Shown here piece after piece: positions 1-42,760 of a DNA stretch of 64,000 bases; position 1 is the first letter of the stretch, and every line of letters begins with the position of its first letter. The notes beneath the pieces were generated by a model. The model had not been told where the DNA came from, did not search any database, and saw nothing but the letters and a program-made list of their open reading frames with translations. Made by a program: the position numbers and the translations under genes. Location: positions 13,183 through 77,182 of the forward strand of contig DATKRK010000416.1 of assembly GCA_035532215.1 (NCBI GenBank). Reading direction: 5' to 3'. The stretch is from Pirellulales bacterium (GTDB lineage: Bacteria > Planctomycetota > Planctomycetia > Pirellulales > JAICIG01).

Positions 1-2184
1 CCGGTGACGGTGAACGGCTTCAATGGCACGAAGCCGGCTTCGACGGTCTACGTGAACGGCAGTTCCGGCAACGACAACATCTACGCCGACTATCGCACGA
101 TCTCGCTGGACGCCAATCCGGCCGATCGCATCCAAGCCGGCGTTCCGTTCACCCATTTGGGATCCGACATCACCTATTCCGGCGTGGCCGCCTTGAATCT
201 CGCCGGGATGGGCGGCGACAACACATTTACCATCCAAGTTCCGCCGACCTTGAATGCCCCGTTCGTGAGCAACGTTCTGCCCGCCACGGTCGTGGTTTAC
301 GGAAGCAACAGCCCGCTCTCGTTGCCTGTCGCCAACGGAACGAACTTGTTGCGAGTGCTCGGCAACGATCCGAGCACCAACAGCACCGGCGCCGACACCA
401 TCGCCGTCGGCGATTTCGGCACGGATCCGATCCAAATGGTGAACATCTCTGGACTGGTGATCTACGGGTATGGGGGCAACAACACCTTGACCAATGATTC
501 CGTCGGCATCCCGCTGCAAGGCATTCCTCCGGTGCCGGCCGTGCTGATCGGCGGCTCGGGCAACGACTCGCTGACCGGCGGCGCCGGCGGCGACGTGTTG
601 TTGGGCGGCGCCGGCATGAACACGTTGACCGACAAGTCCACGGCCGGCTACACGGCGTACCTTTTGGCGCATCAGGACCAGAACGGCAATATCTACGATC
701 CGTACTTGCAGTCGCCCATTCCACCCACGGACAACACGCTTTCGACGATTACGACCGGCGCCGGCAACGACGTCGTGGTGACGGGCGCCCGGCAGCAGAT
801 CATCTACGGCGATCCGGGCGACATCGACAACTTCAAAGCCGCGACTTCGACGACCGGCATCTTGCAGCAGTTCGCGACGGTCGATCCGCAGAATTTGACG
901 AGCTCCTTGTACGAAGTCACGCCGGCCTTGTTGGCGCTGGAACAGGCGTTTGGGATCAGCAACGGACAGTTTCCGCCCAATGAAGCGGCCGTGCTGGAAT
1001 TCGGCGCGAACAAAAACTTGCGATCTCAGTTCGCTACGTTCGGCGCCTTCGTGGGCCGCGCCTATGCCGACTACATGGTCGACCGCAAGGGCGGCTTGGG
1101 AACTTCAGGCGTCGTCAGCACCGATGAAATCAATTTCTGGGTCGGGCTGGCGCAGCAGGGGGTAACCGTACAACAGGTGCAAGCCACCTTGTTGGCCTCC
1201 GACGAGTTGCGACAGACCGAGCGGCTCACGAACGCCTGGTTCCGCGGCATGTACGAAACGGTGCTCGGGCGACTGCCGACGCCTGCCGAAATCAACGCCT
1301 ACCTCACGCCGCTGGAAATTAACGACACGTCCGCGACGCGATATCAAGCCGCGATACAGTTGCTCACGAGCACCGACGGCACGCTGGCCGAAATCAACGA
1401 GATGTACGCCAATCTCGTGCCGAAGGGCTCGCCCTCGCAGCTCGACGAGCAGGCGATCCTGATCGACCTGGCCTCCGGCATGCGACTGGAACAAGTGGCG
1501 CAAATCATCTCCGCCAGCAACGGAGACTACTTCAACTACGCGGTTTCCCACAACGCCGGGGAAGTCGGCTTCATCGGCGGGCTGTACGAGAGCGTACTGG
1601 GGCGATCGGCCTCGAGCGCCGACCTCGCCACGTGGGGCCAGTTTCACGCCGAAGGCGTCAGCAACGAACAGATCGCCCTGGCCATTTTGACTTCGCCCGA
1701 GCACCGGTCGCACATCATCGCGGGCTATTACGAGACGTACTTGCACCGCGGCGTCGACGCGGGGGGCCTTAACTTCTGGCTCAGCGTGATGGCGGCAGGG
1801 GCTACCGAAGAACAAGTCCTGGGCTCGATCGTCGGCTCCGAGGAGTATTACCTCGAACACGGCGGCACGTCGGATTCGTACATCCGCGCCCTCTATAAGG
1901 ACGTCCTGTTGCGGCCCACGGCGCCATCTCAAGCGGAGGTCGACGGTTGGATTGCCACGTTGGCTGCATCCTCTCGCGGCGCGGCCCAAGCCCGCGCCGA
2001 CGTGGTCGTCGGCTTCGCCACCAGCGACGAGTTCCGCTCGAGGGAGATCAACGGCTGGTACGAGGCTTACCTGGGACGGCCCGCGACCGCAACCGAGATC
2101 GACGTTTGGCTGAATACGTTCCATTTGGGCGCCAGCCAGGACGCCGTGCAAGCGCAGATCTTGCTCAACCGGGCGTCCTTCTAG
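1..2184 (+). CDS. C-terminal part (5'-truncated by the window edge) of a large secreted repeat protein with an RTX-like Gly/Asp stretch and several DUF4214-type repeats
   Basis: Frame 1 is open from nt 1 to TAG 2182-2184 (ORF track 4..2184). GGSGNDSLTGGAGGDVLLGGAGMNTL resembles hemolysin-type Ca-binding nonapeptides. Repeated units such as WFRGMYETVLGRLPTPAEINAY, FIGGLYESVLGRSASSADLATW, YIRALYKDVLLRPTAPSQAEVDGW and INGWYEAYLGRPATATEIDVW match the DUF4214 signature. The same signature ends both downstream giants. Confidence 0.8.
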   Translation, partial: PVTVNGFNGTKPASTVYVNGSSGNDNIYADYRTISLDANPADRIQAGVPFTHLGSDITYSGVAALNLAGMGGDNTFTIQVPPTLNAPFVSNVLPATVVVYGSNSPLSLPVANGTNLLRVLGNDPSTNSTGADTIAVGDFGTDPIQMVNISGLVIYGYGGNNTLTNDSVGIPLQGIPPVPAVLIGGSGNDSLTGGAGGDVLLGGAGMNTLTDKSTAGYTAYLLAHQDQNGNIYDPYLQSPIPPTDNTLSTITTGAGNDVVVTGARQQIIYGDPGDIDNFKAATSTTGILQQFATVDPQNLTSSLYEVTPALLALEQAFGISNGQFPPNEAAVLEFGANKNLRSQFATFGAFVGRAYADYMVDRKGGLGTSGVVSTDEINFWVGLAQQGVTVQQVQATLLASDELRQTERLTNAWFRGMYETVLGRLPTPAEINAYLTPLEINDTSATRYQAAIQLLTSTDGTLAEINEMYANLVPKGSPSQLDEQAILIDLASGMRLEQVAQIISASNGDYFNYAVSHNAGEVGFIGGLYESVLGRSASSADLATWGQFHAEGVSNEQIALAILTSPEHRSHIIAGYYETYLHRGVDAGGLNFWLSVMAAGATEEQVLGSIVGSEEYYLEHGGTSDSYIRALYKDVLLRPTAPSQAEVDGWIATLAASSRGAAQARADVVVGFATSDEFRSREINGWYEAYLGRPATATEIDVWLNTFHLGASQDAVQAQILLNRASF

Positions 2185-2321
2185 GGGCCGAGCGAGGTGC
2201 AAACGCCGGCCGCAAGCCGGCAAGAGGAAGCTGCGTTCCTCCGGAAAGGTTCGCTCGACGTCCGGCCGCGCCGCAAGTTTTTCGAATGCGCGCAAAACGC
2301 CGGATTGAACGTGCTTTTTTG

Positions 2322-2350
2322 TTGCCTTAAATGTTACGGCCGAGCACAAT
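2322..2350 (+). promoter_or_regulatory. candidate sigma70-type promoter upstream of giant gene 1
   Basis: TTGCCT (2322-2327), 17-nt spacer, CACAAT (2345-2350), in the comparatively AT-rich spacer 2185-2452, about 100 nt upstream of ATG 2453. This is a pattern match only. Confidence 0.2.
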
Positions 2351-2452
2351 CGGTAGGAATTCAACGCTTTCGAAAAAATAGATCGGCGACCCCGGAACAG
2401 GGGAAGCACAATCCCTAGAAACATCGAAAGTTTCGCCTCAGGAGAATGATCA

Positions 2453-5400
2453 ATGGGGATGTGGAGCTCATGGCGCCCTATCCAGAATCCCGAGCAGGAT
2501 CGCAATCGACGACGCGGCGCTCGCAGACGCGGACGGGCCGCCCGGCCGTTGGTCGGACGAGAGATGCTGTTGGAGCAATTCGAACAGCGCTTGATGCTGA
2601 CCGGTCCGCAATTGATTTCGATCATTCCGGACGCCGGCGGTTTGCTCTTGCCCGGCGACACTTTGAACGTCGCTCCCAAGGAACTGACGTTTAATTTCGA
2701 CCAGAATCAGACCATCAACGCGGGAACTCTGGCCGGCATCGAACTGGTGCGCAGCGGCGGCGACGGCACGTTCGGCAACAGCAACGACGTGCAAATCACT
2801 CCGGGATTCATCGGCATCGGCACGCAGCCCAATACGGTCGTGATGCGCTTCAGCACGTCGCTGCCCGACGACCTGTACCAGATTACGATCGTCGGCTCCG
2901 GACCGAATGCGCTGACCAACGCCTCCCAAGAGGCGTTCAACAACGGGGTCAACGAGAGCCAGGAATTCCGCTTGAACCTTGGCCCGCAGGTGCTGGCCGT
3001 CGTGCCGCAGCCAATCAGCCTGCCGGATCCGACGACGGGCGTGCGAACGCAAGCCGCGAACGAAATCGACGTCTACTTCAATCAGCGCTTGCAAGAGTGG
3101 GCCGGACATCCGGGCCAACTCGATCCCGCCTTGTTCCAGTTGATCGCGACCAAGAACACGGCGACCACCGCCGACGATACGGTCTACGTGCTCGATCCGA
3201 ACGTGTCGACGTCGACGCCCGCGGTCTTCGCTGACGGCACGACGCACGTGGCCGGGCAGGTTTACTATAACGCCGCGAACAACGAAGCGAGGTTGGTGTT
3301 CGGGCAAACGTCATCCGTGCCGGGCGCCATAAACCTGAATACGCTGGGCACGGGCTCTTTCCGGTTGCGGTTCGGCAACAGCGACCAGCCGCAGCAAGCT
3401 CCGCTGGTCGTTCCCGTGCCGCCCTCGCCCGACAATCCTTCGACGCCGGGCGGAACCGGCCCGGGCGACACCTTTTCCACGTCGATGGCCACCGGCGCCT
3501 TGGGCGACGGACAAACCAAGCTTTTCGACTCGTCGATCGCGCCCATGTCGGTCAACGCGGGATTGTTGTTCCCAGGCGGCGATTCGGCGCCGGGTACGCA
3601 GAACATCGCCGATCCGACCAGCATTTCCGGCTTGGCGGCCTGGATCACTTCGCAAGGCATCCAAAACCACTTGATCGACGGCCGCTATACGTCGCCGGGC
3701 GGCGTAACGACGATTCCCTATAACTTCCAGGACATTTACGGCTCCGACGTCAACGGCAACCTGCTGCACAATCAGATCAGCACCACGCAGGAGCAGGATG
3801 TCCGCGATATCTTCAGCTTGTTCTCCTACTACAGCGGCGTGAATTTCGTGGAAACGCCGCACGACGGCATCACCTTCGCGGTGGGCGATATTCGCGCCGT
3901 GGCGCCGTCGGATCCGGCGACTTCGGTGAACGGGATCGAAGGCCCCACCAAAACGGCGCCCTTCGTGGCCATCGTCAACGGCAACGTCAATTGGGGCCAG
4001 AGCGAATACGGCGGCGCGTTCTTCGCCGTGGCCATGCACGAGATCGGCCATGCGCTGGGGCTGGGCAATTCCTACGATTTACCGGCGCCCAACGCAATGG
4101 GCTATACCGGAGTGACGGGCGGAGGCGAAGATCCCAATCAGCCGACCCAGCCGGCCAACCAGGTCGGCACGGCCGAACCTGCGCTGCCCGGCGCCGGCGA
4201 CATCTCCGCATTGCAGTATCTGTACAGCACTGACAGCAAAGACGTCGATCTCTACAAGTTCACGCTGACGCAACAAGGCGTGCTCAACGCCCAAACGATC
4301 GCCCAGCAACTGACGCCCACCAGCAGTCTCAACACCGTCCTGACGCTGTACAACGAACTGACCTTGTTGGGCTTGCCCGCCAACGGCGGACAAGGCGTCA
4401 GCGACGGCCAGACGTTCTCCATCACCAGCACGAATCCCGGCGGCGTGACTGCGACGACGCAAACGTTCGAGTTCAACAGCGGGTTGTCGCTCACGCTGCC
4501 CGCCGGCGGGGTCGTAGACGGGCGAACCTTCTCGCTCAGCGACGGCACGCACACCGTGCGATTCGAATTTGCCGTCAATGGTCGTCAGTTATCGCCCGGA
4601 GACACGAACACGCCGATCGACTACAACGCCAACGACTCGCTCGACACGATCGCCGGCGACGTCGTGCAAGCCATCAATTCGGCCGTCAAGAACGCCGGGC
4701 TCGGCGTCACCGCCCAAGGCTCGCAAACCATCGACGCAACCTACAGCGGCAGCGGCGCGATCAACATCGGCGGCGACGCCAACACGACGTTCAGCGCGCA
4801 AAATGCGGGCTTGACGATCAGCGGAAACGTGAACGTGCAGGCCGGGCACATCCTCGTTCGTTATGCGCCTGCCGACACGCAGCACGATCTGGCGATCGCC
4901 ATCGCCAACGCCATTACCGGCGCCGCCGTGTCGCTCGGCAACCCGAACGGATTGAACGTCTCCGCAACGGCGGAACTCAACCAGGTGCAATTGCAAGGCC
5001 CGATCAGCCTGGACATCAGCGGCTCGCCGACGTTGACGTCCTCGATCCAGCGCTCGATCATTTCGCGCAACGACGATTTCATCGGCACGGACTCGCTGAT
5101 CAACCTGAACCTGACGCCGGGCGTGTATTACATCGGCGTGAGCAGTTCGGGAAATACGAACTACGACCCCAACATCACCGACAGCGGCTGGGGCGGCGCC
5201 AGCAACGGCATGTACGAACTGCGGCTGAACTTCCAGGCCACGCCTTCGACTCCGACGAATCCGGCGAAGGCCAGCTTGGACAGCTACGTCGCGCCGGTCG
5301 ATACCGGGCTCAATGCGCTCGGCCAGGACGCTCCGCAGCCTCTCGACGGCGACGCCAACGGCACGCCGGGCGGAACCTACAACTTCTGGTTCAACGTCAC

Positions 5401-22696: not shown

Positions 22697-23213
22697 GGAC
22701 GGAGGAGAAGGGGGGTCGCTTTTTTCTTGACTTAGATGTAGCGCGAGATTTAATGGAACCTAAGCTCGTCCGAGTTCGGAACATACCGCCGGCGCCTGCC
22801 TCAAGGCCCTGCAGCGGGTTAAAGGCGCCAGGATGGCACTCTCGCCGGAGTTGCCGGCGTCGAGGCCGCGGGCTGTTGGTAATCGGCTTTTCGTCGACGG
22901 CGCCGAGTCTGATTCGTAAACGCCGCCGCCGCCGACGAAGTCTGCCGGTCAATGATCGAGCCGTGTCAGTTCGCCTGTGGCAAGATGTCGGCGGTGGTGC
23001 GCGCAGAGATAGCCTTGTATGACGGGCAATCGTCAGTCTGGGCTGAAATGGTAATTGGGGAGGACTTGGCACTTTACCTGGCCAGATAAAGTGGCAAGTA
23101 TAGGATGTTTGCGTATTGCTATTAGAATGGCAGAAATAGAAAACTAAGGGGTTCTGCCTAACCTGTTCCGAGGCCGTCTGGTTGGAACAGGATTCCACCT
23201 AGGAGAAGAATTC

Positions 23214-35200: not shown

Positions 35201-38200
35201 CCCGGCTAATTCCGGCGCCAGCAACCCGGTCGAAGGGTCGATCGAAACGGTGCTGGCCAACCCGTCGAACCCCAACGTGGTCTACGTGGGCACGGTCAAC
35301 GGCGGCATTTGGAAAACGACCGACGCCATGGCCGCCGGCGGTCCGACCTGGACGCCGCTGACCGACAACATGCCTTCGATGTCGATCGGGGCCTTGCAGT
35401 TCGATCCGACCGACGCCACGCACCAGACCTTGATCGCCGCCATCGGCCGCTTCAGCAGCTTCGCCTTCGCGGGCGGCACGCTCGACGGCCTGCTGCGCTC
35501 GACCGACGGCGGGCAAACTTGGACCCAGATCGATCCGGGCGGCTTCTTCAATGGCAAGAATTTGACCGGCGTCGCCGAACGCGGCCAAACGATCGTCGCC
35601 ACCGACAACGGCTTCTTGGGCGGCAACGGCGGCTTGTACGTGAGCAGCGACGGCGGCGCCACGTTCACGACCGTTTCCGGCACGCCGAACAGCGGTTTGC
35701 CCGACGGGCGCGTCACCGATCTGGTGGCCGACCCGAACGACAACAATCGCTTGTACGCCGGCGTGCTGGGCTCATCGGGCGGCATTTTCACGAGCACCGA
35801 TCGCGGGCAAACCTGGAACAACATCACGCCCTCCGGATTGACGCTGAATTCTTTCCCGTTCAATGACAACATCCGCATTGCCGTCTCGGCGACCGCGGGA
35901 AGCCCGGTCTATTTCGGCTACGTCAACAACGGGCATTTGGCCAATCTCTACCGCTCGGGGGATTTCGGCACGACTTGGCAGGCGTTGGACTTGCCCACCA
36001 CCAACGAGAACGGCACCACCGAAGGCTTGCAGCCGGGCGCTGGAGACGAGAATCCAGGCGGTCAAGGCGTGATCCATTTTTCAATCGCCGCCGACCCGAC
36101 GAATCCCGATTTGGTGTACGTGGGCGGCGACCGCCAGCCGGGGCCGGGCGATGGTTCGGCCACGTTCCCCAACTCGTTGGGCGCGCTGAATTATTCAGGA
36201 CGCTTGTTCCGCGGCGACGCATCCAAGCCCAGCGGCAGCCAATGGACGTCGTTGACCCACGTAGGCACGGCGAGCGACAGCGCTCCGCACGCCGACTCGC
36301 GCCACCTGACGTTCGACGGCAACGTGTTGCTGGAAACGGACGACGGCGGCATTTACATGCGGACCAGCCCGCAATCGTCCAGCGGCGACTGGTTCTCGTT
36401 GATCGGCAACCTGCAGGTCAGCGAATTGCACAACATCGCCTACGACACGAACACCAAGACGATCATCGCCGGGGCCCAGGACGTCGGCACGCCGGAGCAA
36501 TTGCCGGGCAGTACGACCTGGAACGACTTCGCGCAAGGCGACGGCGGCGACGTAGCGGTCGACGACAGCAACGCGGGCTATTCGATTCGCTATGCCAGCT
36601 ATCCGGGCCTCGGCGGCTTTTCGGCCACGACCTACGATGCCAACGGCAATCAAATCGGCCAGACCTCGTACCCCTCGTTGATCGTCAACGGCGCCGGCGG
36701 TCAGGACATTTTTCAGTACGACGTCGGCTTGCCGTTCGTCACGACATTCAAGCTCAACGCCATTGATCCGACGCGGATGGTGTTCGGCGGCGGCAGCGCC
36801 GTCTACGAATCGCTCGACGACGGCAATACCGTGACCAGCTTGGGCGTCGGCGGCATACCAGGCGGAATTTCGGGCGCGGCGATGGCCTATGGCGGACGGA
36901 TCGTCGATCAGTTCGGCAACGTGGCCAACAATCCCAACGTGCTCTGGGTCGGCGCCGGCAACCAGGTGTTTCTGCGGACCACGGCCGGCGGGCCGTTGGT
37001 GCAGTCGAACTACACGGGCGGAACCGTGACCAGCCTGGCGATCAACCCCAACAATTGGCAGCAGGCCTTCGTCACCGACGCCAACGGTCATGTCTGGATG
37101 ACCACCGACCAAGGCGCCAGCTTCATCGATATCTCGGGACCGGCGGGCGGCGCCACTTCGTTCACCACGTTGACGAGCGACCCGCACAGCGTGGCCTTCG
37201 TGCCGGGCTTGACGAGCGGCACGCTGTTCGTCGGCGGCATCGACGGAGTCTATTCGACGCCCATCGGCAGCAGCGGCGCCTCGGGCGCCTGGGCGCGATA
37301 CGGCCAGGGCCTGCCGCACGTGCCCGTCTACGGCTTGGAGTACGTGCCGAGCCAGCAATTGTTGGTGGTGGGCACGATGGGGCGCGGCGCCTTCTTGACG
37401 AATGCGCTCGGGGCTTCGGGCAACCTGAGCGTCACCGTCAACGGCGCAAAGCAGGTCAGCGACGACTCGAACGTGCTGACTCAGGAGCTGACGATCACTC
37501 GCAACGGCTCGTCCGGCGATTTGACGTTCTCGCTGACCTCGAGCGACCCGACGCTGGCCTCGGTTCCGGCAACCTTAACGATTCCCGACGGCAAGTCTTT
37601 AGTGTCCGTCGACGTAACGATCTCCGACAGCGCCGTCGCCCAATACCCGGCCACGGTCGTGTTCACGGCGTCGGTGGGCGGGCTGAACAGCATTTCCGAC
37701 AGCCTGGACGTCGTCCCCAACGGCGACGACAGCAGCGGTTCGAGCACGCCGACGGACGCGGATACCCCGTCGCTGACGGTCAGCATTCCGCCCGGCTCGC
37801 AGGTTCAAGCCGACACGGGCGTCAATTCGGTGGTCGCCACGGTCACGCGCAACAGTCCGACGACCTATCCGCTGACGGTGTACTTGCTGAGCAGCGATCC
37901 GAGCGAGGCGTCGGTTCCGGCCACCGTCGTGATTCCGGCCGGACAGACGTCGGTCAGCTTCGTGGTCGGCGCGGTCGATCAGTTTGCCGGCGACCTTTCG
38001 CGTCTGATCACGATCACCGCGGCGTCCAGCGGCTTCGTCAGCGGCTTGGATTCGCTGACCGTGAATCCGGCGAAGCATATTTTGTCTTACGATCGGCTGG
38101 GAGATCCCAACCTGCTGCGGCAGCAAGGGCAGGTCGTATTGCAGGACAACAAGATCTCCTCTTCGCTCGACTACGGCATCGTGGTCGAGGCGGCGCCTCG

Positions 38201-41200
38201 CGATTCGGTCACGGGTCAATCGGTCCCAGGCGCGGTGCAGAACTTGAGCACGCTGAACACGGCGCGGCTGACGCCGGGCGCCACGATCGAGAACAACTTG
38301 ATCGTCGGCGGCGGGCAAGGCGGCATCGATTTCCTGGGAGATCCCAATTCCACCTCGGCTGCGCTGGCCGCCGTGCCGTTCGGTCGAATCGTGAACAACA
38401 CGATCTACGGCGCAGCGACGCCGACGGGCATCGGCGTCAACGTAGCGCAGAATGCCAGCCCCACGATTCTCAACAACATTTTCGCCAATCTGGCCACGGG
38501 CGTCAGCGTCGACAACACGTCCGGCACGACCGTCGCCCAGCGTTCGGTCTATCAGAACGACGGCACGAATCTCAGCGGTTCGGTCTTCGGCGGCTCCGAC
38601 GTGAACAGCCTGGCCCTGTCTTCGACGGCGAAGCTCTTCGCCAACGCCGCCGCCGGCAATTTCTATCTGCTGCCCGGTTCGCCCGCCATCGACAGCGCGC
38701 TGAATTCGATCGCCGAGCGCAGCGCCATGCACGCGGCCAAGACCCTGACGGGGATACCCGACTCGCCGATCGAAGCCCCGGCTTACGATTTGTACGGGCA
38801 GTTGCGCACGGCCAACCCGCAAACCACGCCCAACGGCGTGGGCAGCACGCAATTCAAGGATCGCGGCGCCATCGAAGCCGTCGACTTCACCGGCCCGACG
38901 ACGACGTTGGCGAACCCGATCGACAACGGTTCGAACGATCAAGATCCGGCCCTGAACGTCGTTCACGACGTCGGCGTCTCGCTGACCGACTTCGAGATCC
39001 AGTTCAGCGACGCCAATGGCGTCGGCGTCGACGACTCGACCATCGACAGTTCGAAGTTCGTGCTGTATCGAAACGGCACGCTGCTGCAGCCGGGCATCGA
39101 CTATTTCTTCCGCTACGACGTCAACACCAAGACGGCCTTTTTCACGCCCGCCACCGGCACGTGGCTCAACGGCAGCGTCTATACGATCGCCGTCAATAAC
39201 GGCGTTCATTTCGATCCGTTCAATACTTCGACGCCGGCGAATTCGAGCAACGGCGTCAAGGATTTGGCCGGCAACCTGCTGCAGGCGAACTCTTCGACCG
39301 GCTTCACGCGGTACGATATCTTGCTGCAGAGCGCCAGCGGCGACGCGCCTTCGATTGGCGTGCCCGGCGTCCAGAACGTGCCTGAGAACGGCCCAACCGC
39401 CGCGAACTCGCTCGTCTTCAGCAGCGCGAAAGGCAACGCCGTCACCGTGTTCAACATCGATGCGCCGAGCAACCCGGTCGCCGTCACCTTGAGCACCAAC
39501 CAAGGCACGCTGACGCTCGCCGGGGTAAGCGGTCTCAGCGGCGTAAGCGGCAACAATTCGGCCTCGATCTCGTTCACCGGCTCGCTGACCGCCATCGACG
39601 CGGCTTTGAACGGCTTGACGTTCGTCCCGACGACCTACTTCAACGGGTCGGCGGCCATTTCGATCACCGCGACCGACACGGTCCGGAATTTGACCGGTTC
39701 GAACACGGTCAACATCGCCGTGATCCAGGTCAATCAGCCCCCCTATCTCACGCTGCCGCCCAGCCCGTCGATCTCCGAAAACACGGGCGTGATCTTCTCC
39801 ACGGCCAATGGCAACTCCATTACGATGGGCGATGTCGATGCCAACGGCGGCGTCGAGCAGGCGACGCTGACGGTGCTCAACGGCGCGGTCACGCTCGCTG
39901 AGAAGACGGGCCTGACGCTGCTCACGGGCACGGGTTTCGAAGATACGACAGTCACCATCCAGGGTACGTTGGCCGCGATCAACGCCGCCTTCAACGGCTT
40001 GATCTTCACGCCCGCCTTGAACTTCGCCGGCACGGCGTCGATTCAGTTCTCGCTCGACGATTTGGGCAACAGCGGCAACGGCCCGCTTGGGCAGGCCGGC
40101 GTCTACCCGCAAACGTCCTCGTTCACGCTGGAGATCAACGTCACGCCGATCAATCAACCGCCGTACGTCAAGCAGCCGAATCCGCTGAATAACTTGACGG
40201 TCAGCGAGAACGCGCCGCCGTCGGTCATCGACCTGACGCAGGTCATCGGCGATCCGGACACTTCCATTTCGCCGCCCGAGAACTACCCGACCATCTCCGT
40301 GACGAGCAACTCCAACCCGGGCCTGGTCTCGGTGAGCATCGATCCGACCACGCACTTGATGACGTTGACCTACGGCCTCGACCGATTCGGTCAGACGTCG
40401 ATCACGCTCACGGCGGTCGACGCCGGCGGCAACCATCCCTCGCTGACCTATACGTTCAAAGTTACGGTCAACAAGGTGGAACTGCCTCCCCAGACCAACA
40501 ACGACGGTTACGTTTACGCCATCGGCACGCCACTGGTCGTCACGGCGCCGGGCGTGTTGGGCAACGACGTGGAACTCAACCACGAGCCGCTCAAGGCCGT
40601 GTTGTTCAACGTGCCGGCCCACGGCAAGCTGACGCTGAACGCGGACGGCTCGTTCACGTACATTCCCGACGCGGGCTTCGACGGGCGCGATAGTTTCGTC
40701 TACTACGCCGACAACGGCAGCTTCCGCACGGCCGCCACCGTAACGCTGGACAGCCCGACCTCGCAATGGGTGGCTCGCATGTACACCGAAGTGCTCGGCC
40801 GGCCGAGCACCCCGAGCGACGACGAAATCAATAACTGGGTCAGCCAAATCGACCACGGCGAAAGCCGCTCCCAGGTGGCTCAGTTCTTCGTCACCAGCGC
40901 GGAACGGCGCAGCAGAATCATCGACCAATTATATCAAGCCTACTTGGGCCGCGCGGCCGACCCGGCCGGCCTGAATTACTGGCTGAGCGTCTGGGCGGCC
41001 AACAGCGGACCCGAGCAAGTGCAGGCCGGCATTATCGGCTCGCTGGAGTATTTCAACACGGCCGCACGGGAATTGCCCAACCTTTCGCCCGCGGCGGCCT
41101 GGGTCACGAAGCTCTACGAAAACCTCTTGCACCGCGATCCGGGACAGGACGAAGTCGACTATTGGACGACGGTCATTCAGAGCACGTCGCGAGAGGACGT

Positions 41201-41426
41201 GGTGCTGGGCTTCGTCACCAGCGACGAGTATCGCCTGGGCCTGATGCGAGGCATTCCCGACTTCCCCGGCCAACCGAGCTTGCCGGGCTGGTACGAGCAG
41301 TATTTGCACCGTCCGATCGACAATCCGGGCGCCCAATTCTGGCTGGCCCAGATGAAGGCCGGCTACCCGCAAGAAGCCATCCTGGAAGGCATCGTCTCCA
41401 GCGACGAATACTTCAATCGGGCGTAA
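23214..41426 (+). CDS. giant (6,070 aa) multidomain extracellular protein, paralogue 2
   Basis: Uninterrupted 18,213-nt ORF with AGGAGA (23201-23206) 7 nt upstream of ATG 23214. It has the same MGMW start and an Arg/Ser-rich stretch followed by LQLERFEERLLLT. It is collinear with giant 1: an M10-like block with a degenerate zinc motif, a split PPC, at least 9 TFEF-type modules, GDYGG/GDWSG beta-helix blocks (~27175, ~28906), PPC-like domains (~30709-31165 and following), a propeller-like region, SVDGGKTW (33219-33242), PbH1 repeats (~38120-38560), cadherin-like repeats (~39333-40740) and a DUF4214 tail (40759-41423). It also has paralogue-specific cassettes, listed below. Confidence 0.9.
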   Translation: MGMWRSLHPFHSSTPKPSRRSSVKRSSRRRALKRRETNASRAGRRELQLERFEERLLLTAAPQLLSILTNSNDVVFAPNAATQPLTTAPQELDLLFNEGQVIDPATLGGIQIVRAGVDHTLNTADDAPIQPGYVGIGSIPNEVVVRFASTLPDDLYQITLLGTGPDALTNSSNPPVPFSSGNSTQPNQRIDFQIDTAPQVLSVVPEPITRNSDGSLSQATDTIDVYFNKPIQPLPTTINQLDPHLFQLVATQNTADPTDDQVYTPNNVSFDLSTNMAQLTFAAPISSLSTGSFRLRIGDNQPVATGSNAAPVTVPITVGSAGSTFGDANTLTQDPGPYNVGDLNAVSHQLLTGGVIGPVSDLPATATPGGNLGPGLSGIPIDNHVDPNAAQPSGQTHYVPTITYNFPDIYGSVPGNPQLHNVITPAQQQLTREIFQLYSYYYGVQFQEVGSATLGAAELGVVTGVVQSLDQSAPVGLTGIAQAPATPFPVTPLASRGEALAVMNAGIFNTESQYGGPWFMEALRQIGIMLGLTNVNGAPPGTVMGAGGNDPATNAPAEPVFPGNADILHGRYLYQPDSNAINMYKFTVTTPGAFSAETIAQRLTDASGAPDTSLLNTVLTLYNETHVIQLPTTGANPVGSAIVPGSSFTLNDGTSPAVTFAFDNGITPIPAGAVSIPFTASQTAHDVALSLAQAINGYLTTHSLNVSANVEFDRVVLSGPLTVTHSASQGSVAYSVDREIVSRNDDYFGTDSYLKLQLAPGNYYVAVTSTGNANFNPNVPDSGAGGTTTGAYNLRLDFTPTPVSTLTDDGLSLIVPNVPLGGQGGIQNLDKFTISTDSNTSVTFQFVTQGSTPQTGVTAILVSPGATQDQVAQAVATAIANSGLTTLTLRYDGHGQVNLGGSATTTITTSTSALAVWGTATRHVLEGNSDGASGAYNFWFASNDASTIYVDKLSAATADPTLGTIGNPYNTIAGALQAASDRIIAPTGAALATATPQTFVVNDGTYAVTFEFSVNGGAVSAGNIAVSVQSTDTAAQVAQEIYNAILGAEQGGYLTLGPSFAPPATDSDFVDVTGAAFVDVKNAPALLAGTKIVRVVGNIGADNSLGVPINPQPSVSTLAPSGSAGQTFSIAAGTLSLVFEFTQDPTATPGNLLADGNYAVALAPGASAQDIANAMAAAINASPLAQADGGAVAASVTGDAVAFRVNLTGVGQIAINAQNTPSLIAASNAQPYEIGYDQFTHQPLADGGDLNVPQGVTLMIDAGAVFKMEGANLNVGLNSPNIDRSGSALQVLGAPSSSVYFTSFHDNQLGGITDNVTAPSPGDYGGIVFHQHSDLESQGIFLNTVNHANIRYAGGTVIVDGVPAVYNPIYLDGSRPTIDYNTITLSHDAAMSADPNSFQETIFGSSAYDPASINPSIGPYVADYNRTGPDIHGNLLSAVVPGGMAIVTPDASQIIAGETFLVETIDGSGNTSYATFEFTTSSASIVNGKLADGNWAVLFKPGNPAQNIAGDTALQVATDIADAVNAAGIAGVSATVRTVTSSDGTTAQEAVLAGVSKIELPSSRTFNAPTGQSIVDGQTFTIVNPVSGSDTVFEFDNTGAVAAGHVAVPFLASDSATALAGKIAAAINGSSTGVGAIALGNVVMLTSVPNIAVSTTGSVIAGLQSLTVPNGNLLTAGSTFSITNKSNGAITVFEFTTNAASVVNGKLADGNYAIVYASSDQAATIAAAAAAKVNDLGLGFAAIASGANIVLTGLSDFRFASPLSLDSSIVANTVNGLFVRTQNVQGQTPETLDVAARFTATDIVYVISDNLVIQGNPGGPVGSTPRIAGRLAIDPGAIVKLLGARIEVQMGANLIAEGDANQQVVFTSLHDDSFGAGGTFDTDGDNYKLSAPPAVAQPGDWSGIYFAPTSRGSLDYARLAYGGGSSSIAGGTDNFDAIEIRQAQVRIADSTIANNAAGLATTPTRDGLLANDSAAIYVLGAQPTIVNNVLLDNYGAAISINANSLTSDVIPDPGRSTGAIQQYAQFDDNRGPLVRLNRIGNIENRPAINGMLVRGATLDTSSVWDDTDIVHVVENQISVPNVDSRGGLLLESSASQSLVVKLQGDNAGFTATGTPSDIQNRIGGSVQVVGTPGHNVILTSLLDTTAGAGLTPGGQPQNDTNNTGVGTPADTPPTFPPSGGQLTVTPSNNAAALVNSMLLRPLPSGVTVAGTNYVGGATEAGTYINGDGVPLQIPQKGAILTTGIAQIPAQNTSTDFGADLGLPGDPRLSALIGGTPTYDACELTFTVNVDPSSSIKSGIFEFQFGSDEYPEFVGSFNDVLAGFIDGSPTSNFLHDSKGNLVSVNSAFFDINNNVQLPAKSPLNIEYDGMTSGLRASFPLHSGLNTITIAIADALDGILDSGVLMTDLHFSTQSVGAGGVTRAGASSGQWNSITLDQNSNDTNVAVVNEAEPANTGGVDTNGTVATAQNLGVMAPNMKSGDDTERLGFVVNGAISPNAPGDMDMYRFQAQPGTQVWLDIGNTSPGLDTVLELVDANGTVLARSDNSGQEAANPALLQAELPGNLAQTMPADTLLHGLYDPNSAADPALRDLNSTNPYDAGFRLVLPGTLNPSQPLNNYYVRVRSRGADSHYNDLGKGLSSGVYQLQVRLQEQEAFPGSTVQNADIRYATNGIQVIGLPAHSPLIAEAGSSQAAHNTMATAQDLGNLLTTDRNAIGVSGNLSSGTTQDWYKFELNYNLAQVIAGLNSGDKTFATMFDIDYADGLARPNTTLSVFDAAGNLIYVGRDSNIGNDQPLPGQSSTSALTDLTRGSAGQLDPFVGTVQLPAGPTRTYYVAISSDATLPTALNATFVKGAAQPLIRLEPIDSLNRIVEDHIGSQGGQTAQDPKSLTAAFNGNTSSQAGIDQLNSSATPFSLSDVTLFVDQAGNNGHLETVNPFTGQSETDINPVPSSGSGYGDIAMRNDGQLYGFSLGTISAGGGNYNLIDTGTAAINTQGNGGIVTYAFNNANPPVLTANNTGVQINAIAFDQSGGPNNRLLFGVGSYAGGNGVSGFANGLYEFNPNTGAVLGATGNATNPTDPPPKILNLLGGPGGQITGMAYVNGTLYAVTSLGGLFVINNPQGNASATYVGTATALAGVNFTGLTAGPPDVAGGKYASDLFATDASGKLWSFDTAGILQKVFANGAASISLGATNLVGLAFSTLDYNLWHVTNHRGTDAGHGINVAPDQSRDPASANQPQAGNTSFYFGLEAPPSADPNSLNANSQPDAGNYATNPSVYHTYNLPGGAQGSLVSNSFSLSNYTAGDKPTLYFNYFLDTQQASATPADPTGMRDSARVFASVDGGKTWQMLATNDPEVPTSNTDPNGELPSYQSASSNTGSGDPRQQVQQLFDGSGSWRQARVDLGAYAGYSHIQLRFDFSTAGSMGQGLPGDNFGDPTSPQRGQNNAHEGWYVDDITVGFAERGEMVTGATANSTFFTVPQNQNVGAPQQILSGPYQLEIRQGTSYAQTVNPLTPDITLTQSFDTNDRLASGFTIIAPAGSAVTDGETFTVGDGVHTVTFEFDNDNSLQHAGDVAVPFQSSYTQAQMGAAIAAAINANLTLKGVTAGTVDNSVLNLTAPTGASLTDGQTFTVADQSGHSVVFEYDSNGSVQAGHVAVPFALTSTSADVAASISAAISNASSLVGLNVNVIATGSTSLVVVGGVASSTVTGDRVEVYGAAAVSAINAVQGNISVSFNNPSTSTTNVNHGSVSENGGTTSIWVASSAPAGNQTTVTLSAIDLAKAAGINPPLSSNVSFQYNSQSGPSIALTLTGGQPQLVVVTGLPQMGANNQPLADGPQAVELVATAAGYSSNSATIDVTDDPTLLPALGVTIDSPKSIAENSATPIEATITLNTPPLDHDLTVNVQSLNPGAAATPAVVTIPAGQTSATFPITAVDNNVINPGGKQTAVILATAAGYLGGSDTLTVLDDGDGQIPFNSAPTYLPQGPSHIINGQAENVPDPANSGASNPVEGSIETVLANPSNPNVVYVGTVNGGIWKTTDAMAAGGPTWTPLTDNMPSMSIGALQFDPTDATHQTLIAAIGRFSSFAFAGGTLDGLLRSTDGGQTWTQIDPGGFFNGKNLTGVAERGQTIVATDNGFLGGNGGLYVSSDGGATFTTVSGTPNSGLPDGRVTDLVADPNDNNRLYAGVLGSSGGIFTSTDRGQTWNNITPSGLTLNSFPFNDNIRIAVSATAGSPVYFGYVNNGHLANLYRSGDFGTTWQALDLPTTNENGTTEGLQPGAGDENPGGQGVIHFSIAADPTNPDLVYVGGDRQPGPGDGSATFPNSLGALNYSGRLFRGDASKPSGSQWTSLTHVGTASDSAPHADSRHLTFDGNVLLETDDGGIYMRTSPQSSSGDWFSLIGNLQVSELHNIAYDTNTKTIIAGAQDVGTPEQLPGSTTWNDFAQGDGGDVAVDDSNAGYSIRYASYPGLGGFSATTYDANGNQIGQTSYPSLIVNGAGGQDIFQYDVGLPFVTTFKLNAIDPTRMVFGGGSAVYESLDDGNTVTSLGVGGIPGGISGAAMAYGGRIVDQFGNVANNPNVLWVGAGNQVFLRTTAGGPLVQSNYTGGTVTSLAINPNNWQQAFVTDANGHVWMTTDQGASFIDISGPAGGATSFTTLTSDPHSVAFVPGLTSGTLFVGGIDGVYSTPIGSSGASGAWARYGQGLPHVPVYGLEYVPSQQLLVVGTMGRGAFLTNALGASGNLSVTVNGAKQVSDDSNVLTQELTITRNGSSGDLTFSLTSSDPTLASVPATLTIPDGKSLVSVDVTISDSAVAQYPATVVFTASVGGLNSISDSLDVVPNGDDSSGSSTPTDADTPSLTVSIPPGSQVQADTGVNSVVATVTRNSPTTYPLTVYLLSSDPSEASVPATVVIPAGQTSVSFVVGAVDQFAGDLSRLITITAASSGFVSGLDSLTVNPAKHILSYDRLGDPNLLRQQGQVVLQDNKISSSLDYGIVVEAAPRDSVTGQSVPGAVQNLSTLNTARLTPGATIENNLIVGGGQGGIDFLGDPNSTSAALAAVPFGRIVNNTIYGAATPTGIGVNVAQNASPTILNNIFANLATGVSVDNTSGTTVAQRSVYQNDGTNLSGSVFGGSDVNSLALSSTAKLFANAAAGNFYLLPGSPAIDSALNSIAERSAMHAAKTLTGIPDSPIEAPAYDLYGQLRTANPQTTPNGVGSTQFKDRGAIEAVDFTGPTTTLANPIDNGSNDQDPALNVVHDVGVSLTDFEIQFSDANGVGVDDSTIDSSKFVLYRNGTLLQPGIDYFFRYDVNTKTAFFTPATGTWLNGSVYTIAVNNGVHFDPFNTSTPANSSNGVKDLAGNLLQANSSTGFTRYDILLQSASGDAPSIGVPGVQNVPENGPTAANSLVFSSAKGNAVTVFNIDAPSNPVAVTLSTNQGTLTLAGVSGLSGVSGNNSASISFTGSLTAIDAALNGLTFVPTTYFNGSAAISITATDTVRNLTGSNTVNIAVIQVNQPPYLTLPPSPSISENTGVIFSTANGNSITMGDVDANGGVEQATLTVLNGAVTLAEKTGLTLLTGTGFEDTTVTIQGTLAAINAAFNGLIFTPALNFAGTASIQFSLDDLGNSGNGPLGQAGVYPQTSSFTLEINVTPINQPPYVKQPNPLNNLTVSENAPPSVIDLTQVIGDPDTSISPPENYPTISVTSNSNPGLVSVSIDPTTHLMTLTYGLDRFGQTSITLTAVDAGGNHPSLTYTFKVTVNKVELPPQTNNDGYVYAIGTPLVVTAPGVLGNDVELNHEPLKAVLFNVPAHGKLTLNADGSFTYIPDAGFDGRDSFVYYADNGSFRTAATVTLDSPTSQWVARMYTEVLGRPSTPSDDEINNWVSQIDHGESRSQVAQFFVTSAERRSRIIDQLYQAYLGRAADPAGLNYWLSVWAANSGPEQVQAGIIGSLEYFNTAARELPNLSPAAAWVTKLYENLLHRDPGQDEVDYWTTVIQSTSREDVVLGFVTSDEYRLGLMRGIPDFPGQPSLPGWYEQYLHRPIDNPGAQFWLAQMKAGYPQEAILEGIVSSDEYFNRA
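24415..24950 (+). other. M10-like block of giant 2 with the zinc-binding/catalytic motif lost
   Basis: ITYNFPDIYGS...FQLYSYYYGVQFQE...WFMEALRQIGIMLGLTNVNG aligns residue for residue with giant 1 FFAVAMHEIGHALGLGNSYD. The changes are H->R, E->Q and H->I. The motif lies at nt 24771-24818. Confidence 0.7.
29769..30450 (+). other. choice-of-anchor-L-like domain inserted in giant 2 only
   Basis: NNAAALVNSMLL...GVTVAGTNYVGGATEAGTYINGDG...GAILTTG...GLPGDPRLSALIGGTPTYDACELTFTV...FEFQFGSDEYPEFVGSFNDVLAGFIDG matches the choice-of-anchor L signature (F-x-(F/Y)-x-S-(D/E)-E-Y-x-E-(F/Y)-V..FND). Giant 1 goes directly from GLTPGDRPDN... to SPGDWNSVLFDQ at the equivalent point. Confidence 0.6.
35110..37400 (+). 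other. BNR/Asp-box beta-propeller region (sortilin/VPS10-like) inserted in giant 2 only
   Basis: Asp-box motifs (S/T)-x-D-x-G-x-(T/S)-(W/F): STDGGQTW 35499-35522, SSDGGATF 35643-35666, STDRGQTW 35793-35816, SGDFGTTW 35955-35978 and TTDQGASF 37101-37124. It is flanked by Calx-beta-like segments (~34790-35100 and ~37420-38060), e.g. VVTIPAGQTSATFPITAVDNN and PATVVIPAGQTSVSFVVGAVD. Confidence 0.65.
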
Positions 41427-41446: not shown

Positions 41447-42760
41447 ATGCTTCGCCGATTGCTTGCGGGCGGCTGCTTCATCGGCCTGTTCGCGCTGGCG
41501 CCGCTCGCGACAGCGTCGGCCGACGAACCGGCGGCTTGGGCCGCCGCCCATCTCGATGAGCTGCTGGCGCTCTACAAACACTTTCACCAGCACCCGGAGC
41601 TTTCTCTCGAAGAGCGAGAGACGGCCGCCCGCGTGGCCGATGAATTGCAGGCCGCAGGGGCCCAGGTCACGCGGGGCCTGGGCGGCCACGGGGTCGTGGG
41701 AGTGCTTGCCAACCGAAAAGGGCCCACGGTTCTGATTCGCACCGATTTAGACGCCCTGCCGGTCACCGAGCAGACGGAGCTGACCTACGCCTCGACGGTC
41801 AAGGTCAAGGACGCTCGCGGGACCGAGACCGGCGTCATGCACGCCTGCGGCCACGACATCCACATCACCAGCCTGATCGGCGTGGCCCGCTATCTCAACG
41901 AACATAAAAACCGCTGGCAAGGCACGGTGGTGTTCATCGGCCAACCGGCGGAAGAACGCGGCGAAGGCGCGCTGCAAATGCTCAACGCCGGTCTGTTCGA
42001 GAAGTTTCCCAAGCCCGACTACGCCCTGGCCATGCACGTCGACGCGACCCTGGCCGCCGGCAAGGTCGGCTATCGGGCGGGCTACACGTTGGCCAACGTC
42101 GACAGCGTCGATATCAAGCTGCGCGGCCGCGGCGGGCACGGCGCCTTTCCGCAAACGACGGTCGATCCGATCGTGCAAGCGGCGCGGTTGATTCTCGACC
42201 TGCAAACGATCGTCAGCCGCGAAATCAAGCCCACCGAGCCGGCCGTGGTCACGGTCGGCTCGATCCACGCCGGCACGAAGCACAACATCATCAGCGACGA
42301 ATGCGACTTACAATTGACCGTTCGCAGTTTTTCCGACGAAGTCCGCCAGCACCTGCTCGACGCCATTCGACGCAAGGCTGCGGCGACCGCCGCCAGTTCG
42401 GGCGCCCCGGAACCGACCGTCACGGTGTCGGAAGGCACGCCGGCCATGTTCAACGACGAAAAGCTGGTCGAACGCGTCGTGCCGGTGTTTCAGAAGCTGT
42501 TCGGCGAGGAGCGAGTCGTCCCTTCCGAAGCGTCGATGGGCGGAGAAGATTTCAGCCGCTACGGCCTGGCAGGCGTGCCGATCTTCATGTTCCGCGTCGG
42601 TTCTGTCGACGCCCATCGCCTGGCCGGCTACGAGCGGATCGGCCAGCCGCCGCCCTCGCTGCACTCGGCCGTGTACTACCCCGACCCCGAGCCGACGCTG
42701 GGCGCCGGCGTGACGGCCATGGCTGCGGCCGCGCTGGATTTGTTACAGGTCAAGCCATGA
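41447..42760 (+). CDS. secreted M20D-family amidohydrolase (aminoacylase/hippurate hydrolase-like)
   Basis: GGAGG (41434-41438) lies upstream of ATG 41447. Signal-peptide-like N-terminus MLRRLLAGGCFIGLFALAPLATASA. The motifs HPELSLEE, MHACGHDIH, GQPAEERGEG and RGRGGHGAFP are typical of M20D. The longer ORF-track start (41162) would overlap giant 2. Confidence 0.8.
   Translation: MLRRLLAGGCFIGLFALAPLATASADEPAAWAAAHLDELLALYKHFHQHPELSLEERETAARVADELQAAGAQVTRGLGGHGVVGVLANRKGPTVLIRTDLDALPVTEQTELTYASTVKVKDARGTETGVMHACGHDIHITSLIGVARYLNEHKNRWQGTVVFIGQPAEERGEGALQMLNAGLFEKFPKPDYALAMHVDATLAAGKVGYRAGYTLANVDSVDIKLRGRGGHGAFPQTTVDPIVQAARLILDLQTIVSREIKPTEPAVVTVGSIHAGTKHNIISDECDLQLTVRSFSDEVRQHLLDAIRRKAAATAASSGAPEPTVTVSEGTPAMFNDEKLVERVVPVFQKLFGEERVVPSEASMGGEDFSRYGLAGVPIFMFRVGSVDAHRLAGYERIGQPPPSLHSAVYYPDPEPTLGAGVTAMAAAALDLLQVKP

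Follow-up and report, generated by a model that had tools for sequence, protein, structure and literature searches.

Are the enormous reading frames that fill the first 41,426 nt of this stretch of Pirellulales DNA real genes, how did they come to stand side by side, and what might their products do? The stretch, hereafter the window, comprises 64,000 nt (positions 13,183 to 77,182 of contig DATKRK010000416.1, assembly GCA_035532215.1) and opens with three open reading frames (ORFs) on one strand, of which ORF2 and ORF3 are giants and ORF1, cut by the edge of the window, is a far smaller partner. The three frames are genuine coding frames. The array, as judged from its relatives, is an old and fixed three-gene locus in which the duplication that gave rise to ORF2 and ORF3 is ancient. 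By analogy with better-known proteins, all three products are probably exported and kept at the cell surface, where they would form long fibres or structures like adhesins, although confidence in this last step is only moderate. The evidence for each answer, and the alternatives to it, are considered in turn.

Gene models and the reality of the frames

The genes and their translation starts are as follows.

1..2184, + strand: ORF1, C-terminal part of protein P0001; its leader, MMNRLSQFRN...RRRRDRLERRKLSRISNVESLEPRQLLTW, lies outside the window
2440..2455, + strand: Shine-Dalgarno sequence of ORF2, AGGAGA followed by 7 nt and ATG
2453..22696, + strand: ORF2, about 697 kDa, isoelectric point (pI) 4.2, one cysteine, no transmembrane segment
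23201..23216, + strand: Shine-Dalgarno sequence of ORF3, AGGAGA followed by 7 nt and ATG
23214..41426, + strand: ORF3, about 624 kDa, pI 4.3, one cysteine, no transmembrane segment; a divergent paralogue of ORF2

As the initial annotation had it, ORF2 (6,747 aa; 20,244 nt) and ORF3 (6,070 aa; 18,213 nt) are complete, each occupies one unbroken frame of the + strand, and both begin with MGMW in an AGGAGA-N7-ATG context. Given a definition of a giant gene as a single uninterrupted coding frame of more than 5 kb (Reva & Tummler 2008, as used in PMC5177795), both belong in that class, whereas ORF1 (3,162 nt) falls short. The earlier count of at least three giants is therefore right for ORF2 and ORF3 and wrong for ORF1, which is a complete 1,053-aa protein of another family. 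Only the last 727 codons and the stop of ORF1 lie in the window, its start being 978 nt upstream; a homology search with the 727 window residues retrieved the full protein (P0001; 111 kDa) on a 77-kb ENA contig that is about 99.9% identical to the window. All three proteins are acidic (pI about 4.2-4.5) and contain zero or one cysteine.

That the frames are truly coding is concluded from their composition, because GC content at third codon positions (GC3) is 0.84-0.85 in the long frames and 0.83 in the window's seryl-tRNA synthetase gene, and because the long antisense ORFs show the mirrored GC3 pattern expected of shadows in 63% GC DNA. Likewise, the strong Shine-Dalgarno sequence and the ATGGGGAT[GT]TGG start are both conserved among orthologues, the composite AGGAG[AT]-N6-8-ATGGG[GA]AT[GT]TGG being kept in eight orthologous loci. 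It might still be argued that the long frames are relics or artefacts (pseudogenes, chimeras or collapsed repeats), given that the sequence is known from metagenome assemblies only and that the ORF2-like gene of a related metagenome-assembled genome (MAG; locus L014) is broken into four pieces. This is highly improbable. Frames of 20 and 18 kb stay open with the GC3 of housekeeping genes, and orthologues from more than 10 other genomes are open for more than 3,200 codons. Further, independent assemblies of three ENA samples and one JGI sample contain nearly the same sequence: one of them (L005) spans ORF1 and the first ~9.7 kb of ORF2, others (L001, L002 and L004) span the last 3.3 kb of ORF3, and all differ from the window by a handful of substitutions only, with frames open wherever they are covered. 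Assembly collapse and recent duplication are both unlikely, because Tandem Repeats Finder reported no long DNA repeats in the window and the DNA of ORF2 and ORF3 is at best 64-74% identical; near-identical internal repeats are also absent from the giants.

The broken gene deserves a remark of its own. On L014 (CAWAYY010000022.1, 13504-23209) the ORF2-like giant is divided among four ORFs of 1,395, 466, 850 and 401+ aa, and since 70-79% identity to ORF2 persists on either side of each break, the breaks look like frameshift errors of assembly rather than decay into a pseudogene.

An old and fixed three-gene locus

To place the array among its relatives, ORF1 homologues at 43-72% identity were looked up or scanned and JGI metagenomes were scanned for the N-terminal module of the giants; giant orthologues were reached through these loci, since a 1,500-aa ORF2 query gave only fragments of 2.5 kaa (thousand residues) or less. 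An ORF1-like gene adjoins an ORF2-like giant at about 15 loci elsewhere, in genomes and in metagenomes. The two stand on the same strand, ORF1-like gene first, in L006, L008/L019, L010, L013, L014, L015, L016 and L017, and again in L031, L032/L033, L034, L036 and L059. The downstream giant begins 170-300 nt after the ORF1-like gene with an MG[MI]W start, and its first 600-3,000 residues share 47-84% identity with ORF2, as against 32-38% with ORF3. In L012 the pair is adjacent and head-to-head. Because the flanking genes vary (PhoU in one genome, a histidine kinase in another, propeller genes here), the linkage is specific to the ORF1-ORF2 pair.

The second half of the array recurs as well. In L023 (GCA_040904665.1), a gene that over its last 2,000 residues matches ORF2 residues 4729-6747 at 43-47% stops 478 nt short of another that is nearer ORF3 than ORF2 (50% versus 43%), and in L026 an ORF2-type tail (54% to the ORF2 tail, 36% to that of ORF3) is followed by an ORF3-like start (52%). 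L026 and L032 share one 50-kb contig, Ga0307373_10001144, which consequently carries the entire trio in order: an ORF1-like gene, an ORF2-like gene of ~10.1 kaa and an ORF3-like gene. P0058, a 6,690-aa protein of a Pirellulales MAG, is an end-to-end ORF3 orthologue at 41-55% identity, and, its contig and that of the ORF1-family protein P0016 and its ORF2-like giant both being 148,024 nt long, the two are taken to be one. In sum, ORF2-like giants are found in L006, L008, L010 and L013-L017, ORF3-like ones are P0058 and those of L026 and L023, and comparison of these sequences indicates that ORF1, ORF2 and ORF3 fall into separate families, or are old paralogues, and are met together again in other genomes. 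It is because both the ORF2-ORF3 tandem and the full trio recur at ~50% amino-acid identity that the duplication is considered old and the locus fixed.

The picture of a locally duplicating family, put forward in the initial annotation, is not borne out: ORF1 belongs to a different family, the DNA of ORF2 and ORF3 is only 64-74% identical, each giant has its own orthologues, and the order of the genes is conserved. Recent local amplification is rejected on the same two grounds of DNA identity no higher than 74% and orthologues for each copy. Within 10 kb upstream no additional giant appears. The ORF1 family itself is compact, its members all being 1,000-1,160 aa long and all coming from Pirellulales metagenome bins; no cultured organism with such a gene was found among the homologues.

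Some of the loci have features of their own. The MAG SMAG_U6108 carries two cassettes of ORF1-like gene and ORF2-like giant (L010 and L013), 72%/84% and 57%/75% identical to the window pair, which means that the cassette itself has been duplicated at least once. Cassette neighbours include a 768-aa DUF4214 protein with the same N-terminal leader motif as the trio (L006, 403-2709, - strand) and a 640-aa protein with the leader motif and no Pfam match (L008, 5156-7078). In L022 (ERZ27256801 k141_1179342, 1576-21568), a 2,445-aa protein with leader and DUF4214, a family-2 glycosyltransferase of 269 aa and an ORF3-like giant stand together; this giant has an intact HEIGHTLGLGH motif, and the locus is the only case seen of a glycosylation gene inside such an array.

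A common N-terminal leader

What the three proteins share are their ends. The leader of ORF2 lies as follows.

2453..2602, + strand: ORF2 leader, comprising MGMW..., a basic stretch and LEQFEQRLMLT; divergent Planc_extracel-type motif, disordered in the AlphaFold2 model

In all three proteins the leader is 38-59 residues long. It starts with an aromatic or proline-rich segment (MGMWxxxHPF... in the giants, MxxRxSxFR... in ORF1), continues with a basic stretch of net charge +6 to +14 and ends in ExLExRxLL[T/A], present at residues 38-59 as VESLEPRQLLT in ORF1, LEQFEQRLMLT in ORF2 and LERFEERLLLT in ORF3. The leaders have no hydrophobic core, the proteins have no transmembrane segment anywhere, and AlphaFold leaves the leader of the ORF1 and ORF2 models without structure. 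Six-frame scans of the window and of five other loci place the motif solely at the N-terminal end of large ORFs, 35-105 codons past the upstream stop, unrelated neighbour ORFs included. These properties mark the leader, by sequence likeness, as a divergent form of the 'Planctomycete extracellular' motif (Planc_extracel, Pfam PF07595). Against a cut-off of 25.5 bits, the family model scores 27.6 for the homologue P0050, 19.1 for the corrected N-terminus of P0016 and 14.0 (E 0.043) for ORF1. A Sec or Tat signal peptide was considered and rejected, there being neither a hydrophobic core nor a twin-arginine consensus context.

The motif has a history in this phylum. Studholme et al. (2004; cited in PMC8567305) put forward its consensus, RRLxxExLExRxLLA, as a new type of export signal. 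The motif is present in 52 proteins of Tuwongella immobilis, 20 of them detected by mass spectrometry; eight of these 20 were detected only in the SDS-soluble fraction S3, where outer-membrane and cell-wall proteins were recovered, and the motif is present in 8 of the 10 longest Tuwongella proteins (4,016-10,566 aa) (PMC8567305).

Gene callers cut this leader short in several ORF1-family proteins. For P0016, P0017, P0018, P0024, P0027 and P0033 they place the start at a methionine inside the motif itself, for example MESLEDRRLLT or MEWLEERQLLT (L006 at ~9.8-10.0 kb and L008 at ~9.7-10.0 kb). The open frame of these ORF1-family genes extends 60-105 codons upstream of the called start and encodes the basic part of the leader, for which reason the deposited N-termini are held to be truncated.

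A common C-terminal tail and the two-part build of ORF1

The other shared end is a tail of four DUF4214 stretches, preceded in the giants by a cadherin-like/Big_9 domain. The initial annotation had all three ORFs ending in DUF4214-type repeats, and Pfam (PF13946, cut-off 23.2 bits) bears this out, with four stretches in each and scores well above the cut-off.

910..2181, + strand: ORF1 helical tail, DUF4214 x4 (E 8e-31, 106 bits)
21758..22030, + strand: ORF2 cadherin-like/Big_9 domain
22037..22693, + strand: ORF2 tail, DUF4214 x4 (E 4e-41, 139 bits)
40452..40748, + strand: ORF3 cadherin-like/Big_9 domain
40749..41423, + strand: ORF3 tail, DUF4214 x4 (E 2e-36, 124 bits)
550..603, + strand: two RTX-type nonapeptides of ORF1, GGSGNDSLT and GGAGGDVLL, coinciding with a 27-nt tandem period at 543-616

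The AlphaFold2 model of ORF1 (predicted local distance difference test, pLDDT, 82.5) is all-beta over residues 50-620 and all-helical over residues 630-1050. In Foldseek, the helical part matches phycobilisome (PBS) linker domains (3pru, 3osj, 3nph, 2l3w and 2ky4) with probability 1.0, a template-modelling (TM) score of 0.57-0.60 on the target, a root-mean-square deviation of 3.0-3.7 A (~3.4) and 16-24% identity. The tails of ORF2 and ORF3 score 19.8 (E 9e-4) and 23.9 bits (E 5e-5) with PBS_linker_poly, below its cut-off of 28.7 bits, and these sub-threshold scores agree with the fold of the ORF1 model. By the ORF1 model and these sequence scores, the tails have a phycobilisome-linker-like helical fold (PF00427 / Gene3D 1.10.3130.20).

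The beta part of ORF1 points in another direction. Its best Foldseek match is the RTX751 domain of the adenylate cyclase toxin CyaA (7usl_C, E 5e-4), HemolysinCabind scores 22.5 bits against a cut-off of 23, and several ORF1-family members match PF00353. On these grounds the three proteins might be substrates of a type I secretion system (T1SS), exported C-terminus first by an ABC/MFP/TolC machinery (ATP-binding cassette transporter, membrane fusion protein and TolC) whose genes lie elsewhere. The signal would then be within the DUF4214 tail or beyond it, T1SS signals having no dependable signature in sequence, and the leader would be a module for retention or processing in the periplasm. The GGxGxD nonapeptides and the beta-roll-like fold of ORF1 favour such a route, as do the very acidic, nearly cysteine-free composition of all three proteins and their lack of a hydrophobic signal peptide. 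So does the RTX-DUF4214 protein Psh (PP_1794) of Pseudomonas putida, which leaves the cell through a T1SS, masks phage receptors and is proposed to bind the O-antigen of lipopolysaccharide; DUF4214 proteins elsewhere carry serralysin-like, cadherin and Ig-like (immunoglobulin-like) 'cargo' (10.64898/2026.09.02.748959). Against this stand several observations. T1SS genes are missing from three different neighbourhoods, namely the window together with the 10 kb upstream of it, the flanks of L006 and those of L008; the HemolysinCabind match lies just under the Pfam cut-off and is confined to ORF1, Pfam finding no RTX blocks in either giant; and the leader is strictly N-terminal, independent of protein family and common to Tuwongella cell-envelope-fraction proteins. 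Moreover, linkage of Psh-type proteins to T1SS genes is seen only in Gammaproteobacteria (10.64898/2026.09.02.748959). Export by a T1SS is the main rival of the surface-fibre proposal and is, on this evidence, unlikely. LapG-type processing was likewise rejected as a candidate, TAAP being present in ORF3 only.

The bodies of the giants

Between leader and tail, each giant is a chain of Ig-like, PPC, beta-helix, propeller and cadherin-like modules, interspersed with a repeat of about 85 aa.

2606..3442, + strand: about three N-terminal Ig-like domains of ORF2 (residues ~52-330), CopC/PcoC-like
29823..30428, + strand: choice-of-anchor L domain, ORF3 residues 2204-2405 (NCBIfam NF038133, E 6e-33, 114 bits, cut-off 27)
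35634..35990, + strand: BNR/sortilin-Vps10-type propeller, ORF3 residues 4141-4259 (Pfam Sortilin-Vps10, E 6e-16)
4508..15877, + strand: 14 scattered copies of the ~85-aa repeat in ORF2
25134..34328, + strand: nine copies of the ~85-aa repeat in ORF3

Aligned by BLASTP, ORF2 and ORF3 share six ordered blocks at 33-58% identity, separated by unmatched stretches of 130-1,400 aa on either side; the collinearity with whole-domain insertions and deletions claimed for them in the initial annotation is thereby upheld. Its description of modular surface or secreted proteins also fits, given an N-terminal motif of the export type (PMC8567305), an acidic and almost cysteine-free composition, the lack of a membrane segment and the modular domains. 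Most of each giant has no sequence match in Pfam, NCBIfam or the PDB, including a phmmer search of ORF2 against the PDB. In the AlphaFold2 model, ORF2 residues 50-180 reach a pLDDT of 75-90, and the Ig-like region matches CopC/PcoC in Foldseek (TM 0.76-0.80) as well as tandem Ig folds. PPC, beta-helix/NosD-like and BNR/sortilin-type propeller stretches follow, all of them at or below family cut-offs; the ORF3 propeller segment has a sub-threshold NCBIfam F510_1955-like match, and tandem-95/cadherin-like domains are present too.

The ~85-aa repeat (14 copies in ORF2, nine in ORF3, none in ORF1) has the consensus GQTFxIxDG....TFEF....G..AV....DT...A...A.AIN....A..G..V.L.G and a predicted structure of three strands, a helix and two strands. 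Some copies interrupt a PPC domain that is unbroken in P0049 and other homologues, and others stand at the start of a beta-helix. Searched against Pfam and the PDB, the repeat profile gives matches at noise level only (Flagellin_IN, E 0.02; FlgD_ig, 4e-4 in 2 of 22 copies; FliD and tail-sheath, E >0.05), and the weak resemblance to flagellin 'IN', FliD and FlgD_ig is best treated as a lead, not a classification. The repeat is widespread all the same: a profile search of 1.84 billion representative proteins found it in 1,957, of which 753 at E <= 1e-10. Most carriers are 2-8 kaa long with 5-24 copies, and those with names belong to Pirellulales, Pirellulaceae and Rhodopirellula.

An eroded matrixin-like domain

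Near the N-terminus, both giants contain a domain of recognizable enzymatic ancestry.

3650..4372, + strand: ORF2 matrixin-like (M10 metzincin) domain, then the first half of a PPC domain (profile and Foldseek)
4037-4069, + strand: ORF2 zinc motif HEIGHALGLGN, with Asn in place of the third His
24357..25100, + strand: ORF3 matrixin-like domain, zinc site lost (ALRQIGIMLGLTN at 24777-24815)

ORF2 residues ~400-590 match the catalytic domains of MMP-8 and MMP-13 in Foldseek (probability 1.0, TM 0.53-0.59, ~21% identity), and a search of the PDB with a profile of the domain retrieves matrixins, among them MMP-12 (E 2e-7). Of 14 family members, nine are recognized by Pfam Peptidase_M10; the ORF2 domain itself, at 23.1 bits, is under the cut-off of 24. 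The zinc consensus, HExxHxxGxxH with a Met-turn, is incomplete in ORF2 and absent from ORF3. ORF2 retains HExxH and a Met-turn-like 'AMG', the third His being missing throughout its lineage: the motif reads HEIGHALGLGN here and in five orthologues, DEIGKALGLGN in two and NEIGHALGLAT in two. All zinc ligands are lost in ORF3 (RQIGIMLGLTN) and in its orthologue P0058 (QQIGRLLGLGF, MQQIGRLLGLGF), and more distant paralogous giants outside the trio have the canonical HEIGHxLGLxH and Met-turn. Because the site is eroded in the ORF2 lineage and lost in ORF3 and P0058, the domain is probably non-catalytic in this locus.

The presence of this domain nonetheless invites the proposal that the giants are degradative multi-enzymes, secreted or displayed scaffolds in which a metalloprotease, a pectate-lyase-like beta-helix and a glycosidase-like propeller digest polymers or the envelopes of prey. 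The Beta_helix/NosD, BNR/sortilin and F510_1955 glycosylhydrolase-like matches, the canonical HEIGHxLGLxH kept by paralogous giants outside the trio, and the Omnitrophota giants with N-terminal peptidase domains, for which a similar role has been proposed, may all be cited in its favour. The full HExxHxxGxxH, however, occurs in no member of the ORF2 lineage, several lack even the first His, and ORF3 and its orthologue have no ligand at all; the beta-helix and glycosidase-like matches are all below family cut-offs, no catalytic residues were identified, and non-catalytic repeats make up most of each protein. A digestive role is accordingly improbable.

Promoter-like elements and 5' leaders

A scanner for consensus promoters and terminators reported nothing in the three spacers. 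Alignment was more informative: in the ORF1-ORF2 spacer of four genomes, a block of ~50 nt is invariant and the rest has diverged.

2313..2350, + strand: ORF2 promoter-like element, GCTTTTTTG TTGCCT-N17-CACAAT CGG, T-tract first (four-genome alignment)
22718..22754, + strand: ORF3 promoter-like element, GCTTTTTTC TTGACT-N16-TTTAAT, T-tract first

A related form of the ORF2 element occupies the same place in L006 and L015-L019. The ORF2 stop is 22 nt from the ORF3 element, and a further 460 nt separate this element from the ORF3 ATG; the ORF3-like genes of L026 and L023 have the element conserved in front of them as well. A third copy, TTGACT-N16-TTTGAAT, stands ~300 nt upstream of ORF1 (L005, ~9671-9715). 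The general form is a T-tract, TTGMCT, 16-17 nt and a -10 element of CACAAT or TTTAAT type; the 22-nt pattern occurs twice in the window where chance predicts none. Further, the ORF2- and ORF3-type elements are kept at orthologous places where the proteins are only ~50% identical. From this we infer three sigma-70-like promoters, with 5' leaders of about 90 nt (ORF2), 450 nt (ORF3) and 300 nt (ORF1). A single operon is rejected on the ground that each gene has its own conserved promoter-like element, although co-transcription may still occur.

Two small features of the putative 5' untranslated regions may be recorded. A hairpin, CCCCG-GAACA-GGGG, lies at 2390-2403 (+ strand) in that of ORF2; in L013 and L014 its stem is kept and the loop is CTCTT instead. 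The ORF3 leader of ~450 nt has patches conserved with L026, for example GTTTGCGTATTGC..AGAATGG.

Export and function

The initial annotation saw no dedicated secretion, glycosylation or anchoring genes in the window, and Pfam likewise finds none, yet the proteins bear their own putative targeting leader and the genes their own promoter-like elements. The mechanism that would follow from the surface-fibre proposal is as follows. The leader would direct export by a planctomycete-specific route, and the bodies of the giants would form long extracellular fibres, in which the matrixin-like domain would now be a binding or structural module and not a protease. The tail of four DUF4214 stretches would be a common anchoring, retention or assembly module of the three, binding either a cell-surface glycan, as proposed for Psh, or the other two tails; the sole functional lead for a retention module is the Psh preprint. 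ORF1 would be the conserved small partner of the giants, acting as base, coat or adaptor.

Several considerations weigh against this proposal. Expression, export, leader cleavage and location of the three proteins are all inferred. Pfam PF07595 misses the leaders of ORF2 and ORF3 and scores that of ORF1 under its cut-off. The model of the first 1,200 residues of ORF2, built on an alignment of 18 homologues, has an overall pLDDT of only 56.6. ORF2 may possess residual protease activity, its HExxH and Met-turn being kept. For the binding of O-antigen by Psh there is a single preprint, which relies partly on modelling. Finally, one ORF1-like gene, that of L011, has no giant in the 2 kb downstream of it (L011, 3957-6018).

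The L011 contig stops 667 nt upstream of that gene, where a head-to-head arrangement like that of L012 is possible.

A bolder version of the surface-fibre proposal would make the trio one hetero-oligomeric surface organelle. ORF1 would be its glycan-bound base or adaptor, on which the giants would dock or bundle through their PBS-linker-like DUF4214 x4 tails; the Planc_extracel leader and DUF4214 tail would together constitute a planctomycete-specific export-and-anchoring system with no need of neighbouring secretion genes; and the giants would bind ligands through a head near the N-terminal tip, formed by the eroded matrixin domain. Such an assembly is speculative, and we consider it rather unlikely.

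Neighbouring genes

Upstream of ORF1, on the opposite strand, are PQQ and FG-GAP propeller genes, followed by chorismate mutase, argC and argJ. Downstream, at 41447-43592, an M20-family peptidase gene begins 20 nt past the ORF3 stop, and two small overlapping ORFs of 118 and 160 aa without a Pfam match come after it. An Unstab_antitox gene and a HicA/HicB toxin-antitoxin pair (47352-48058) lie just upstream of serS, and a 304-aa gene downstream of uvrC (51507-52421) has a precomputed Pfam match to AcrVA2-like (PF26125). The window also contains a DUF1559 gene, which, like the provenance of the homologues, points to an uncultured member of the Pirellulales. Rfam and tRNA scans gave zero matches.

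Significance and comparison with known systems

Planctomycete giant genes are many, and the roles of their products, like the way in which such megadalton proteins reach the surface without classical signal peptides, are little understood. The locus offers a compact handle on both: one small and two giant proteins with the same leader, the same DUF4214 tail and recognizable promoters. Its matrixin-like domain can be compared in nature with the zinc site intact, partly eroded or lost, and the ~85-aa repeat that it defines, for which there is no Pfam model, marks about 2,000 mostly giant representative proteins. Further, if DUF4214 is a general anchor to surface glycans, as the Psh preprint suggests, the trio would show the module reused to tether very large fibres. 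In the literature searched we did not meet the fixed ORF1-ORF2-ORF3 locus with its 1,053-aa partner, the common cadherin and DUF4214 x4 tail, the eroded matrixin-derived domain, the 85-aa repeat family or the conserved promoter elements.

Giant genes as such have long been recognized in Planctomycetota, with 45 in Fuerstiella and 60 in Zavarzinella, and surveys predict surface, adhesion or calcium-binding roles for them (PMC5177795); their association with the Planc_extracel leader has also been reported (PMC8567305). The giants described here resemble these surface proteins (PF07595) in phylum, in genes of more than 5 kb, in a basic leader with ExLExRxLL[A/T] and no hydrophobic core, in multi-domain bodies rich in Ig- and cadherin-like modules and in predicted surface location, and differ in that the leaders of ORF2 and ORF3 are too divergent for the Pfam model.

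ORF1 is most like Psh, by architecture alone, in its two-part build of an N-terminal RTX-like beta part and a C-terminal helical DUF4214 part; in both, the DUF4214 region is assigned to the phycobilisome-linker superfamily and a cell-surface role is proposed. Psh, however, has an adjacent T1SS and no planctomycete leader, whereas ORF1 has no neighbouring T1SS and is paired with a giant. RTX/LapA-type adhesins of Proteobacteria are huge, acidic, cysteine-poor and repetitive proteins with a special N-terminal module and a C-terminal calcium-binding and secretion region, retained at the surface as fibres. The giants here are likewise huge, acidic, cysteine-poor and repetitive, but have other repeat types in place of RTX blocks, a DUF4214 C-terminus and no LapG/LapD or T1SS genes nearby.

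The matrixin-like domain resembles matrixins and serralysins (MEROPS M10) in that ORF2 residues ~400-590 correspond to MMP catalytic domains both in fold and in sequence profile. It departs from them in the Asn at the third ligand of ORF2, the loss of the motif from ORF3, the Pfam score under the cut-off and the embedding of the ORF2 domain in a 0.7-MDa protein. Giants of Omnitrophota (10.1101/2023.11.21.568195) share the PVC superphylum, a peptidase domain towards the N-terminus, unannotated stretches and conserved neighbours, and are set apart by C39/S8 peptidases, many transmembrane segments, SecA-like domains and loci resembling type II secretion systems, none of which is present here. Seen against these systems, the locus is a well-documented and expected kind of planctomycete gene content and not a new category, its closest relatives in likeness being the giant surface proteins of its own phylum.

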